Shown here: piece by piece, positions 36,001 through 45,000 of the stretch
How the letters are laid out: each line of letters opens with the position of its first letter
Numbering within the stretch: position 1 is the stretch's first letter
Made by a program: the position numbers
Source: Tagaea sp.
GTDB taxonomy: Bacteria > Pseudomonadota > Alphaproteobacteria > CACIAM-22H2
NCBI GenBank assembly: GCA_965229215.1
Contig: OZ245864.1
Coordinates: 3,035,346 to 3,099,345, forward strand
Length of the DNA stretch: 64,000 bases
Direction of reading: 5' to 3'

Positions 36001-39000
36001 TCAACGAGCCGACATCCCCGCGCGGCATGGAACCGGCGAATCCGCTGATCTCCATCGACTGCGACTTCAGCGCGACGACGATGTCGCTCCGGGGAACATT
36101 CACGCGAATCGTCATCACCGCTTTCGAATCGACATACACATGTGCGGAAATGGCGGGGATCTTCGCGCGCAGGTCGCCGCCCCAACCTTCGACGCGGAAT
36201 TCGCCATTGGCGTCGCTGACCAGATCCACGAATCCGCCGACACCGGCGCTCGTCCGGATCCCGGTCTGGTCGGGGAGATCCGTTATCTGCCGCCAGTCGA
36301 GAAAAAGCCGGATCGCGATCGCGGCGACAATCACCAGCAGCGTCAGAAGGATGTATTTACGGAACATTGGTGCCAGCTACCATTTCGTGCGGCTGGTCTG
36401 GAGGTCGGGGTGCGAGACCAGACAGTGCCAGACGACAGCTTGAAACGCTTCGGCATGCGGCGTCACGAGCTTGGCGTCGACTGTCGGAACAACCACGACC
36501 GCATTCGCTACCTTTGCGGTATAGCCACCATCCCGGCCGACGATTCCGAAAATCGATGCCTCGCGCACGACGGCAAACTTGAGTGCTTCGACAAGATTCG
36601 GACTGACGTTGCGCTCCAGATCGCCGCCGCCGACGGAAAAAACGAGAATCGCATCGTTCTTGCCCAGACGGCTGGTCTCGAGCCAAGCCGAAAAGACGGT
36701 GGCCCATCCCTCGTCATTCGTCCGTGCCGTCAGCTCCGAAACGTTGTCGGTCGGCGCATACGCCTCGAATCCGCAGAGCTTGCGGAAATCATTCACCGCA
36801 TGGCCGGCATTGCCGGCACTTCCGCCGACACCGAGGATGAAGAGTCGGCCGCCACGCGCACGGGTGGCGGCAAGTCCCTGCGCGACCTGCTCGATCTTGT
36901 CCTTGTCGATCGTCCGGGCAATCTGCGCAGCTTGCTCGAAGAAATCCGTCACGAACGTCATGGCAATCAGCTCCTTCGCCGTTGCCCATGTCTAGCCGTC
37001 TGCTTTCGACCCCGCAACCGTTTCACATTCGCCATCCATGCGCCTTGCCATCGCGTCGAAAGCGCTGCGGATATTCTCGGTCGAATCGTCCGCCCAAATC
37101 CATGCCTGGAAGGGATTTGCGCCCCGGGGCGTGCCGCCGATCTCGAACCCCAGTTCCTGCAGATACGCCGCATCCGTCTGCGGAACGTCCGGCGTCAGGA
37201 TCTTCAACATCACATAGCGGCATCGCGCACTGAAAGCGCACAAGGCATATGGCCCGTTGTTCACGAAAAGGCTCAGCCACGCACGCTCGTACATTGCCAG
37301 CCGCAGGGCCACATCCCGCGACGCCGAGCGGGCAACCGGGAAGGGAGACAGCAGGGCATCGTCGGATTCCGGAGCCGACGTATCCGGAACGAACACGACC
37401 TGGTAGACGCCCGGATCAAGGGTGCGTGCGAACGAAATCCACTGGTCGACGGCGCTGTTGCGTGCAGGCGCTTCGGCGTAGGCCCGCAACGTGATCACGA
37501 CGAGGCGCCGGCCGGCGATGCGCGCATCGAACTCGGCCGCAATGGCGTCCCGGGCAAAGTCCGGCGCCCGAACGAGATCGGGAAGCCGGTCGACCCGATC
37601 GAGGACATCGCGCGGATGATGCGCGGCAGGGAACTGCGGCCAATAGTCCGGCGGATAGACGTTGCCCGCCTCGCACCGCAAATCGACCGCGTGCTGCCTG
37701 TCTCGCGCCGCCACGATCTCCGTGACCGTGGGCACAAGCCTCGCGCACGCCATGACGATCCGCTCGACACGGGCGATCCGCGCTTCGACGGGAATGGCGC
37801 GCTCGTAGTCCGAATGCTCGCGCCTGATCCCGTGATACCGGCCCGGCACGATCACGAACCGGATCGAACCGGCGCCGGAAGCCTTTCGGCGGCACTCGGC
37901 ACCTGCCAGTGCCCAAAGAACATCGAATGTCGTCGGCGAAGCATCCAGATCGTAGAAGGCCGTCACTCGCGAATCATCCGATCCACTGGCGCCCGCCACC
38001 GCCGCGAGCCCGACATGCCGCACGACCGTCGCCACCCGGTAGAGCTTGCCGAACAGGCGGCACGGCGATCGGATTTCCTCGAACAGCCGGGCCGCAAGCC
38101 AGCGCCATCCGTGGCGGCGCCATTCCGATGCAAAGGCCGAAATCCGGCGGAGCGTCGTATAGTCTGGTGGCAATGGCCGCGGGGTCACGGCGCAACCGAC
38201 GACACCGATCGGGCGGGCGCTGCGTGACGTGCATAAAATCGGACCTCTGTCGTCACCGTAACGGCACAGCAATGCGCCGGCACCTCGTGTTGCGGCAACG
38301 TCTCGGCCGCCGCATTGCCCCGGCGCGCGCGCCACCAGACCTTCAGCATCCACCATGGAACGAGGATGCGACTCGCGAGCGACCACGTCGCACGAAGCTC
38401 GAGCATGCCCGTATATGTGTCGATCGCTCGCGCCAGCCAGGGACCGCCCGTGAAGCGGGCGCTCGAAAGATCGATATCCGGCAGCAGCGGAAGGATCTGC
38501 TCGACGCTGCGACTGGACAGCCGCCGCAGCGCGATGCTGGCGTGATGCAGGACCACGCGCCCGCCATCGCGCATCGCCGGACGCACGATCGAATAGAGCG
38601 ATCGATATGACTGGCTCGCTTGCTGCCAGTCCAGGTCGAACAGGCAGAAATCCAGATCGCAAACGCCATCCGGAAGCCCGCGGGACTGGAGCGCATAAGG
38701 CGAAACAATGCTGACTTTCGCGCCGGCAATACCCTTGAGCGCGCGATGGAGAAACCCGTTCTCCGACTGCACGACGAGAATCCGCACACCCGGCACCGCA
38801 CGCACCCGATCGATCTCTTCAAGGACGAAACGCAGGCATGCCCAGTAAGGATGGTTGCGCGTCACCCGCGGCAACGTCCCGAAGATGCGTCGATATGTAT
38901 CCCGGATCGTTTCATCGGAAACAAGGAGCCGCAGCATGCGGCGAAGAAATCCGCCGGTGCCGGGGAGCGGCGCAAGCGACGTCGCGGAAAACTCGGATAC

Positions 39001-42000: not shown

Positions 42001-45000
42001 CATGCGGTCGTGACAAGCCGGACGGTCTTGCGGTTTGCCATCGCTATACAATTCTCACTATCGGACTGTCCCGGTCGCGCCGCGCGGATCGCTGCTGACA
42101 CGCTTGCCCAAGGCCGCGTCGATACCGCATTTACCTCGCATTCTCAAGGGTCGCAACAGACAATGCAATGCGGCCCGTCCGTAACGTACGCCGGTATTCT
42201 GCGCTCGAATGGCGGGCGCATTTGCGACGGAAAAAGCGCGAGATCTGACCGATACGTGTCGGCATCCCGGAGAAGGGGTCGGCTGGCAGTTCAGCCGCCA
42301 ATTGTGCTAGACGAACCAGATCCAGCAAAGTGAGCCCAGACGGATGATCGTACTCGGATTGCATGGCGGCGTGACATTGGGGCAGCACGAACCTGCCGCG
42401 TGTCTGGCGATAAACGGCCGGATTGTCGCGATTTGCGAGGAAGAGCGGTATCTGCGCATCAAGTCCTGCTACGGCTATCTGCCGCACCGCGCGATCAAGG
42501 CCTGCCTCAAGCAGGCAAACATCCGGATCGAGGACGTCGACCTGATCGTGACGCCGGGCGCGACATATGACGATTTCGCCGAACGATGGCGCGAGTATCT
42601 GCGCCATACTTTTGGCCATGCGCCGAAGATCGAGCCGATCCATCACCAGATGGCCCATCTCGCGGCGGCGTTCTACGGCTCCGGACTCGATGAATCGCTG
42701 GTGATGTCGCTCGACGCGACAGGTGACGGAAGCTGCGGGATGCTTGCGCATGCCACCCGGAAAGGTGGCATTCGGGTCATCGAAGAAATGCCGACGAACC
42801 GCTCGCTTGGCTATTTCTATACCCTGATGACCTACTATCTCGGGTTTGAAGACGGCGACGAATACAAGGTCATGGGGCTTGCCCCTTATGGCGAACCGTC
42901 AATCGATCTATCTCGCATCGTCGCCCCGATACCCGGCGGCTGGCGGTTCGATTGGGCCTTCGTCCGCGACGACCCCCCGCCCAAGTCTCCTTTTGAGCCG
43001 CTGTATTCCAAACGCATTTTCGAAGCACTCGGCCGTCCGAACAGACAGCCAGACCAACCTTTCGACCGGTTCTACAAGGATGTCGCCCGCTCGACCCAGG
43101 CCGCGATGGAAGCGTGTCTGCTGTCGCTCGTCGAGGGCCTGCGCGCCCGCGCGCCGGCCAGCCGGAATCTCTGCTACGCCGGCGGCGTCGCGATGAATTG
43201 CTCGGCGAACAAGCGCCTGCTCGAAAGCGGCTGGTTCGATCACGTCTATGTTCCGCCCGTCGCTTCAGATCGCGGGCTGGCGCTTGGATGCGCGTACTAT
43301 GGCGCCGCGATGTCCGGCGACACGCCGTGGCCACTTCTCGATGCATATCTCGGCACGTCCTACACGAACGACGAGATTCGCGCCGAGCTCGATGCCAACA
43401 GTTCGCGGTATGACGAGATCGAGAACCCGGCTAGCGCGGCCGCCGAACTGATCGCAGACGGAAAGATCATCGGATGGCATCAGGGTCGAGCCGAGGCAGG
43501 CGCCAGAGCGCTCGGCGCGCGCTCGATCGTCGCCTCGGCGGCGACGACCCAGATGCGCGACCTGGTGAATGCGCGAATCAAGTATCGCGAAGAATTCCGG
43601 CCTTTCGCGCCATCGATCCTGCAGGAAGAGGTCGGCGACTGGTTTGACGTCGGGAAGCAGGATGATTTCCCGTACATGACCTTTACGCTCGACGCCAAAC
43701 CCGAACAAGCCGCACGGATCGCGGCGGTGGTGCATGTCGATGGCACCTCGCGCGTCCAGACGGTGCGCAGTTCAAACAATGAAATCTACAGCGATATGAT
43801 ACGCGAGTATCGGGCTCGCACCGGGGTTCCGGTCGTTCTCAATACCAGCTTCAACCTGAAGGGCCAACCGATCGTCGAGACGCCGAGAGACGCGCTCATG
43901 ACGTTCCACGGCTGCGGACTCGACGCGCTCGTGGTGGGCAATTTTGTCGTCCGGAAGTAATCCGCCCGACCGGGATACCGCGCGACTTCTGGCGCGCTTC
44001 GGGATTCCGCGCGATGGCGTTCTGCTGGTTCACAGCGCGTTCAAGGGATTCGCCCGCGACGGACATACGGCCGACGGCGTCCTCGAGGCGCTGATGTCCC
44101 ACATGTCGGCCGGAACGCTCGTTCTGCCGACGATGTCGTGGCGCTATGTAAAGCCTGACAGGCCCGTTTTCGATGAGCTTCTGACGCCGTCGAACACCGG
44201 ACACCTCACCGAGGTGTTCCGCCTGAGGCATGCGACGCATCGCAGCCTCCATCCGACCCATTCCTGCGCCGGGCGCGGCCGATTCGCCGGGAAGATTCTT
44301 GGCGAACATCATCTGGGCGATACGCCGTGCTGGGCGCGCAGCCCCTTCGGAATGCTTGCCGAATACGACGCATGGGTCCTCATGCTCGGCATCTCGATGG
44401 ATTGCTGCACCCTGATCCATCATGTCGAAGAAATGATTGCGCCCGATCTGTATTGTCGCCCGAGCAGCACGGCCGAGAATTATGTCGTCCGGTCGCGCGA
44501 GGGAATCGAACATTCGATGCGGCTTCGCCGCCATCTTTTTCTTCCGCGCGACTACTGGCAGTTCCAGGACGCGTTGGCCGCCGCCGGGAAATTCAAGGTA
44601 GCCGCGATCGACGGATCGATCTGCCGGGCGTTCCGTGCACGCGACCTGGTTTCGCTCGTCGGCGACACGCTGCGCAGCCGCCCCGATGCGATCATCGCGA
44701 AGCCGGGACAGCGCTATCGGATGATGTGACCGCGGCATCGATTTCGCGCGCATAGCGCGTGATCATCGCGTCGAAGCCGGGAAGTTCCGCGAGCCTGCGG
44801 CCAGCCTGGGTGGACAGGCGGGCGACGAGGGAAGCATCCTTCGCAAAATCCTCCAGGATTTTTCCCAACGCCCGGAAATCGCCGGGCTCGTAGAACAATC
44901 CATCGAGCCGGTCGCGTATCTGTTCGCGCACACCGTAGACAGGCGTCGCCACGATCGCGAGCCCGTGCGCCATCGCTTCCAGAATCACGCGCGGGTAGCT

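Follow-up and report, generated by a model that had tools for sequence, protein, structure and literature searches.

The window considered here is a stretch of 64,000 nucleotides from the genome of Tagaea sp. (assembly GCA_965229215.1, contig OZ245864.1, positions 3,035,346 to 3,099,345 of the forward strand), and it is a large lipopolysaccharide (LPS)/O-antigen region. Our subject is a tandem pair of genes on its minus strand, gene A (40125-42041; 638 amino acids (aa), ATG start, protein beginning MANRK) and its paralogue gene B (38185-40128; 647 aa, ATG start, MKEKRK), both read as open reading frames (ORFs), together with a third copy on the plus strand (23564-24958; 464 aa) that belongs to a short subfamily of the same family. 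A first-pass annotation, made from the sequence alone, had described 38185-42041 as two collinear, translationally coupled paralogues of ~640 aa, with a third copy related only in its N-terminal part, and all of this was borne out: both ORFs lie there on the minus strand, and every shared motif block that it quoted is found in the sequence. The A and B proteins have the same three-part layout and align end to end over 641 columns with 40% identity (BLASTP, E 8e-157), their N-terminal 345 residues being 54% identical and their C-terminal ~230 residues 31%. The third copy matches A and B only over residues ~17-292, an N-terminal part of ~290 aa, at 23-26% identity (BLASTP, E ~1e-12; 3e-12 and 9e-13), and tblastn shows that the window holds exactly three copies of the family. 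The junction between A and B reads GTG AAG CCA TGA AAG, with the stop codon of A and the start codon of B sharing the ATGA at 40125-40128. Because the ATG of B overlaps the TGA of A, translational coupling is real at the sequence level.

A and B are genuine genes under constraint. Their GC content is 0.74-0.77 at third codon positions and 0.46 at second positions, in surrounding sequence of 64.8% GC, and both are called as genes in a related public assembly. Against a relative in which the two proteins are 92% and 84% identical, the ratio of nonsynonymous to synonymous substitution rates (dN/dS) is 0.076 for A and 0.17 for B, and 0.06-0.10 for their N-terminal domains, as expected under purifying selection. 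No transmembrane segment was found in A or B. A promoter scan gave no promoter-like site inside the operon, and terminator-like sites inside it were no commoner than in shuffled sequence. Megablast and tblastn searches against plasmids returned zero matches.

AlphaFold2, given 49 homologues, confidently models A (mean predicted local distance difference test score 89.3, predicted template modelling score 0.85) with an alpha/beta domain from residue 1 to ~345, a 34-residue helix with a disordered stretch (345-408), and a second alpha/beta domain (409-630). The N-terminal domain (residues 1-345 of A, 41007-42041; 39094-40128 in B; 23564-24463, plus strand, in the third copy) is glycosyltransferase (GT)-like and adopts the GT-A fold, with a single Rossmann-like nucleotide-binding domain; the structures that match the model best include K4CP, the chondroitin polymerase of Escherichia coli K4, and LARGE1. 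By sequence, A, B and the third copy match 0 Pfam families at E <= 1, and neither the single proteins nor a 49-sequence profile gave a meaningful match in Pfam, NCBIfam or PDB sequences. Glycos_transf_2 matches appear below threshold in two of the 49 family members, while one relative, P0221, passes this Pfam model (26.6 bits against a cut-off of 23.3) exactly over the YFVFLNADFVFSNGS segment, which is the DxD region. In hhalign, the family N-domain profile aligned with a GT2 profile assembled from fetched loci over 194 columns (E 3.8e-4, probability 36%), pairing RLVTTAWG with the first strand (beta1) of GT2, EFAIATES with 'vDDgStD' and FLNADF with DxD; the family profile against a single GT2 protein from the window gave zero alignment. 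These three weak sequence threads to GT2 are in line with the fold. Compared with GT2-type GT-A enzymes such as SpsA, K4CP, mycobacterial GlfT2 and AvpGT/PglI-like proteins, however, A, B and the third copy match neither PF00535 nor any other model significantly, and the family reads N-x-D where GT2 reads D-x-D. It also has signatures of its own (W-G after beta1, LLAPGN, DQFYW, DSD and H..W) and a domain ~150 residues longer, which is then followed by a methyltransferase-like domain. The family was first described as unrecognised, which still holds in that sequence searches place it in no named family, but at the fold and profile level its N domain is a very distant GT2-like GT-A, and hence less exotic than was supposed. 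Likewise, the proposal of a nucleotide-sugar- or phospho-donor-dependent transferase can be kept in its first half, which fits the GT-A fold of the shared N domain, whereas nothing points towards a phospho-donor.

The Asp-containing blocks highlighted in the first-pass annotation, LNADF..ADG and DSD, are indeed (nearly) invariant across the superfamily. In A, LNADFIVADG (41667-41696, minus strand) follows beta4 in the model and contains N117-A-D119 and D124, and DSD (D258-S259-D260; 41262-41270, minus strand) is invariant in both subfamilies. The corresponding blocks are LNSDFVLADG (39754-39783) and DSD (39349-39357) on the minus strand in B, and LNPDTLVPDG (23924-23953) and DSD (24410-24418) on the plus strand in the third copy. 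D119 and D124 show no variation within the long subfamily and almost none across the superfamily. Residues that are (nearly) invariant in both subfamilies comprise W14, G15, L31, P33 and N35 (of LLAPGN), T51, D119, D124, G137, R173, H184, P220, D240, D258-S259-D260 and H309, and A, B and the third copy keep every one of them, in the case of B because it is a row of the alignment that defines them. The DxD position is occupied by N117-A-D119 in A, N-S-D in B and N-P-D in the third copy, and D119 aligns with the GT2 DxD. N117-x-D119 would be the DxD equivalent and a candidate site for nucleotide-sugar/metal binding, with D240 or DSD as candidate acceptor-side catalytic residues (DSD may alternatively be a metal site).

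A GT-A-like domain need not transfer sugars, as nucleotidyltransferases share a fold of this kind. The Campylobacter Cj1421/Cj1422 O-methyl phosphoramidate (MeOPN) transferases are also tandem paralogues of ~600 aa, associated with a heptose-bearing capsule, a resemblance in general description rather than in compared sequence. A and B could on these grounds be transferases of a phosphate-linked non-sugar substituent, of the MeOPN type, or sugar-1-phosphate nucleotidyltransferases, and so not glycosyltransferases. No computed result favours either activity over glycosyl transfer, and we regard this as highly improbable. When sugar-1-phosphate nucleotidyltransferases were tried as a candidate identity, the N-terminal G-x-G-T-R-x signature was missing and the best fold match lay elsewhere.

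The extra ~290 C-terminal residues of A and B consist of a linker of ~60 aa and a domain of ~230 aa (residues 409-638 of A, 40128-40817; 38188-38916 in B; both minus strand). The linker of A (residues 346-408) is helical/disordered, holding in the model only the ~34-residue helix and then the disordered stretch. The third copy is without this domain and ends in its own unrelated ~160-aa Trp/Arg-rich tail. The C domain has a Rossmann-like methyltransferase fold, and it aligns in hhalign with class I methyltransferases from the same loci at 93% probability (E 2.9e-7), which makes it a genuine class I methyltransferase homologue. Its S-adenosylmethionine (SAM)-binding signature is nonetheless eroded. 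In place of motif I (E/D-x-G-x-G-x-G) the consensus is h-L-h-V-S-S-G-G (V-x-S-x-G), reading ILMVRTPGPQ in A and ILVVQSENG in B, and where an acidic, ribose-binding residue should end beta2 the family has V-(T/S)-P. What is kept instead is FDLCLC(D/E)L, G564 and T626, with a preceding F-G-x-x-P-x-x-T-x-x-H-P-Y-W segment. The dN/dS of the domain is 0.065 in A and 0.25 in B. One relative carries a genuine TylF O-methyltransferase domain after the methyltransferase-like one, and FkbM methyltransferases are encoded separately in the locus of the window; together with the eroded signature, these observations lead us to favour a non-catalytic or non-canonical role for the C domain. The earlier suggestion that this part of the proteins might be a second catalytic or targeting domain was thus correct as to a separate domain, but a second catalytic activity is not obvious.

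Across the family the sizes of the two domains are constant (N ~345 aa, C ~200 aa), with linkers of 44-243 aa, and the long linker variants are charged, heptad-like and coiled-coil-like as judged from their sequence. In ABC-transporter-dependent O-antigen assembly, coiled-coil rulers separate terminator modules, including methyltransferases, from polymerase modules (PMC11231755), and E. coli O9a WbdD, Klebsiella pneumoniae O12 WbbB and K. pneumoniae O7 ORF6 serve as the comparators (PMC11231755, PMC3482155). A and B are like these proteins in belonging to a Wzm/Wzt pathway and in having GT and methyltransferase-fold modules split by a helical segment of variable length. They differ in their eroded SAM motifs, short helix and lack of a kinase module, and the Wzt of the window has no carbohydrate-binding domain that would read a terminal cap. 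That exporter (48052-49666, plus strand, assigned by Pfam) consists of Wzm, an ABC-2 permease, and a Wzt of 253 aa with the nucleotide-binding domain (ABC_tran) only and no C-terminal carbohydrate-binding module. A ruler/terminator function predicts that long-linker relatives have as neighbour a long Wzt bearing such a module, but there was no clear correlation of this kind, most of the neighbouring Wzt proteins being ~240-300 aa. The ruler analogy is weak, since the linkers in the window are short, the Wzt is without a carbohydrate-binding module and long-linker relatives mostly stand beside a short Wzt too. Under this analogy A and B would be bifunctional, with the GT-A domain extending the chain, the C domain acting as a non-canonical but active SAM-dependent O-methyltransferase that either decorates sugars or caps the non-reducing end, and the linker serving as a ruler as in WbdD, WbbB and ORF6. 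The substitutions at motif I (V-x-S-x-G in the consensus, RTPGPQ in A, QSENG in B), the S/T-P at the ribose-binding position after beta2, the ~34-residue helix that is all the window linkers hold, the short Wzt proteins, the additional TylF domain of one relative and the separate FkbM genes all speak against it, and we judge it very unlikely.

Coupled to B is a GT9 (ADP-heptose heptosyltransferase)-like gene (36992-38188, minus strand; 398 aa), whose GTG start overlaps the TGA stop of B in a GTGA at 38185-38188, so that A, B and the GT9-like gene are joined by overlapping start and stop codons. The GTG start is confirmed by a 398-aa public protein identical to our reading. The product has a GT-B fold closest to WaaC/WaaF, and it gave zero match to the Pfam (Glyco_transf_9) and NCBIfam GT9 models. 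Unlike the GT9 enzymes WaaC, WaaF and TibC, it has an extra N-terminal helical segment of ~70 residues, and its gene lies in an O-antigen locus rather than a core locus.

The family to which A, B and the third copy belong is large. When 1.84 billion cluster representatives (clusters at 50% identity) were searched exhaustively with a profile, 4,048 family proteins came up at E <= 1e-3, of which 1,541 lie at E <= 1e-30, while word-seeded HMMER searches returned 589 proteins related to A and 17 related to the third copy. The cluster representatives are all unnamed; the HMMER relatives lack a name or are called 'hypothetical', and not one of them comes with a Pfam domain precomputed. In data with one genome per species, the family is found mostly in uncultured Alphaproteobacteria (Tagaea, Stellaceae, Xanthobacteraceae, Rhodospirillales) and also in Betaproteobacteria, Nitrospirota, Acidobacteriota and Myxococcota (Myxococcaceae); a homologue of A in a Tagaea sp. 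metagenome-assembled genome (MAG) is 66% identical. Candidate cultured carriers are Pacificispira spongiicola KN72, Algihabitans albus ac2 and Marivibrio halodurans. In six relatives (P0221, P0240, P0223, P0264, P0257 and P0176) the family domain is fused to another such domain, a TylF O-methyltransferase, a different methyltransferase, an esterase/acetyltransferase-like domain of the SASA type, TPR + GT41 or SPRY, and such architectures could guide functional assignment. P0221 has two family N-domains fused in a single chain. In this it recalls the dual-module polymerases, namely K4CP, the Pasteurella heparosan/hyaluronan synthases, LARGE1 and the WbdA-type O-antigen polymerases, in which two related GT modules likewise stand together. 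A and B, by contrast, are separate, coupled polypeptides, and alternating transfer by them would be conjectural.

In a neighbour-joining tree, A-type and B-type proteins form separate clades, and four other proteins, each with its partner on the same contig, fall one into each clade, indicating an old duplication of which both copies were retained. Tandem A/B genes are seen in a Tagaea MAG (L001), where the flanks are syntenic, in a 92%-identical metagenome contig (L077) with the same gene order, and in two far more distant contigs, L078 and that of P0016, whose tandem ~640-aa members have a ~400-aa gene downstream, directly in one and with two genes between in the other. Between one and four family copies occur per locus, with two to four in 24 of 77 loci. 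Neighbourhoods were counted by tblastn within 10 kb at 76 genome loci with a family member, many of them truncated, so that the counts are lower bounds. Wzt was found at 28 of the 76 loci and Wzm at 25, followed by SDR proteins (20), a relative of the third copy (18), HldE-like genes (17) and AAC(3)-like acetyltransferases (14). GmhA, transketolase and FkbM were each found at 11-12 loci (GmhA 11, transketolase 11), and the GT9-like gene and a radical SAM protein (~70% identity) at 10 loci each. In distant genomes, too, the trio of A, B and the GT9-like gene stands beside Wzm/Wzt and heptose nucleotide-sugar genes.

Taking this evidence together, we propose, with a probability of roughly 0.6, that A and B are non-redundant, paralogous GT-A glycosyltransferases of the cytoplasm, which together with the GT9-like heptosyltransferase serve an O-antigen pathway dependent on an ABC transporter. 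The product that they help to build is most likely a surface polysaccharide containing heptose. They would be soluble or peripheral proteins of a large unannotated GT-A family that is very distant from CAZy GT2. Several findings weigh against this proposal. Asn replaces the first Asp of the DxD motif, the profile link to GT2 is weak (36% probability in hhalign), and no GT model is matched significantly by A, B or the third copy. Purifying selection acts on the C domain, which could still bind SAM non-canonically. Nor is the family confined to heptose glycans, since some loci of Betaproteobacteria have RmlA in place of heptose genes. Finally, the locus already has two GT4 enzymes, one GT9-like and two GT2 enzymes, and with these polymerisation can be explained without A and B, which could instead act on side chains.

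This last point leads to the likeliest of the three alternatives that we weighed, ahead of the bifunctional ruler enzyme and then of the non-glycosyl transferase or nucleotidyltransferase. A and B may be glycosyltransferases that add side-branch or terminal decorating sugars to a backbone that is the work of the GT9-like enzyme and the two GT4 enzymes (44692-46329 and 46394-48025), which would suffice for it, and a copy number of one to four per locus is what would be expected of variable decorations. On the other hand, the pairing of A and B is ancient and kept across lineages, translational coupling links both genes to the GT9-like gene, and the relatives with two fused family domains look like dual-module polymerases. 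While none of these points is decisive, the ancient pairing, the coupling and the fused relatives argue for backbone assembly more than decoration, and a side-chain role seems to us unlikely. For the same reasons, the earlier view that the family decorates the glycan was not borne out.

In the proposed pathway, in which A and B are glycosyltransferases working with the GT9-like enzyme, the three proteins would be translated as one coupled unit and work jointly on the cytoplasmic side of the inner membrane, each adding a different residue to the undecaprenyl-diphosphate-linked O-antigen. The third, shorter copy would add a further one, and the finished chain would be exported by Wzm/Wzt and then ligated by the WaaL-like ligase of the window. 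Given the loss of the canonical SAM-binding signature, the C domain would more likely serve in acceptor binding, partner binding or membrane association than in methyl transfer. The trio may form a complex, with the C domains as plausible contact or acceptor-binding modules. A bolder version makes the trio a polymerase complete in itself, of a new type, for O-antigens that contain heptose, in which the variable coiled-coil linker of the family and the methyltransferase-derived domain are an in-built chain-length/termination device or a SAM-independent acceptor-binding module. We consider this decidedly unlikely. If it were true, the device would lie inside the glycosyltransferase polypeptide itself and work without a cap-reading Wzt, adding a third way to arrange ruler, terminator and polymerase modules, and the trio would found a new CAZy GT family of more than 4,000 sequence clusters.

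The genes around the trio suggest which sugars might be available to it, among them ADP-heptose derivatives and UDP-aminouronic acids. Directly downstream lie heptose nucleotide-sugar genes (32137-36961, minus strand; Pfam, NCBIfam), comprising a GmhA-like isomerase (36377-36961, minus strand), a 155-aa protein of no assigned family, two SDR epimerase/dehydratases and an HldE-like bifunctional adenylyltransferase/kinase (32137-33834, minus strand, its start probably near 33687). In the HldE-like enzyme the domain order is reversed relative to E. coli HldE, the adenylyltransferase-like domain being N-terminal and the PfkB kinase C-terminal. All of its NCBIfam scores are far below the equivalog cut-offs, and the sugar product may therefore differ from standard ADP-heptose. 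A split transketolase, its N and C halves being separate genes (27496-29249, minus strand), and a transaldolase (20479-21255, minus strand) may provide a dedicated supply of sedoheptulose-7-phosphate or a two-carbon transfer toward an unusual sugar. An adjacent nucleotide-sugar dehydrogenase and GFO/IDH/MocA oxidoreductase (29919-32230, minus strand) form a pair that resembles the WbpA/WbpB steps toward 2,3-diacetamido uronic acids. With a distant DegT aminotransferase (5522-6649), this pair could be a sign of a second sugar, UDP-linked, for possible use by the GT-A enzymes. Divergent from gene A is a NodU-type carbamoyltransferase (42344-43960, plus strand), the end of which overlaps an AAC(3)-type aminoglycoside 3-N-acetyltransferase homologue (43944-44729, plus strand); the product of the latter probably serves to N-acetylate an amino sugar rather than to confer resistance. 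The literature on heptose- and carbamoyl-containing O-antigens and on the bradyrhizose gene cluster held nothing applicable.

Further genes of the window include the WaaL-like O-antigen ligase with a Wzy_C domain (17505-19427, minus strand), which adjoins an autotransporter beta-domain protein (16156-17274, minus strand); in L078 an autotransporter likewise stands beside the family locus. Elsewhere there are a GmhB-like phosphatase, the FkbM methyltransferases, the two GT2 enzymes and one or more WbqC genes. A pentapeptide-repeat protein of 398 aa (50253-51449, plus strand) is encoded between the GmhB-like phosphatase and an FkbM methyltransferase. It is an odd component for an O-antigen locus, and its position is kept in the 92%-related L077, as a 395-aa gene. 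Radical SAM/SPASM proteins are encoded at 21289-22425 and 58682-59623 (plus strand). The first has ~67-70% identical homologues at 10 loci of distant lineages (Acidobacteriota, Nitrospirota, Stellaceae), and is far more conserved than the neighbouring glycosyltransferases. Two ORFs of 395 and 753 aa (25068-26255 and 54181-56442, plus strand) have coding-like third-position GC content and no Pfam match; the 395-aa ORF has an N-terminal segment like a twin-arginine-type signal (…SRRGFLSAIG…).

The family is probably a new glycosyltransferase family, but the system is not of a new kind: its fold classes, its type of pathway and modular GT + methyltransferase architectures are already known. The novelty lies in a large GT-A family, unannotated and uncharacterised, whose motif set is its own, in an appendage that derives from a methyltransferase and has eroded SAM motifs, and in the recurrent trio of A, B and the GT9-like gene. 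Because no Pfam or NCBIfam model covers the family, glycosyltransferases in the O-antigen and capsule loci of many environmental bacteria are annotated as 'hypothetical proteins'. The value of the finding lies in annotation, in glycobiology and as a target for enzymology. One characterised member would probably found a new CAZy family and would allow donors and acceptors to be assigned in a recurring heptose-type glycan module, and its characterisation would show whether a methyltransferase-derived domain has been re-used non-catalytically in glycan assembly.

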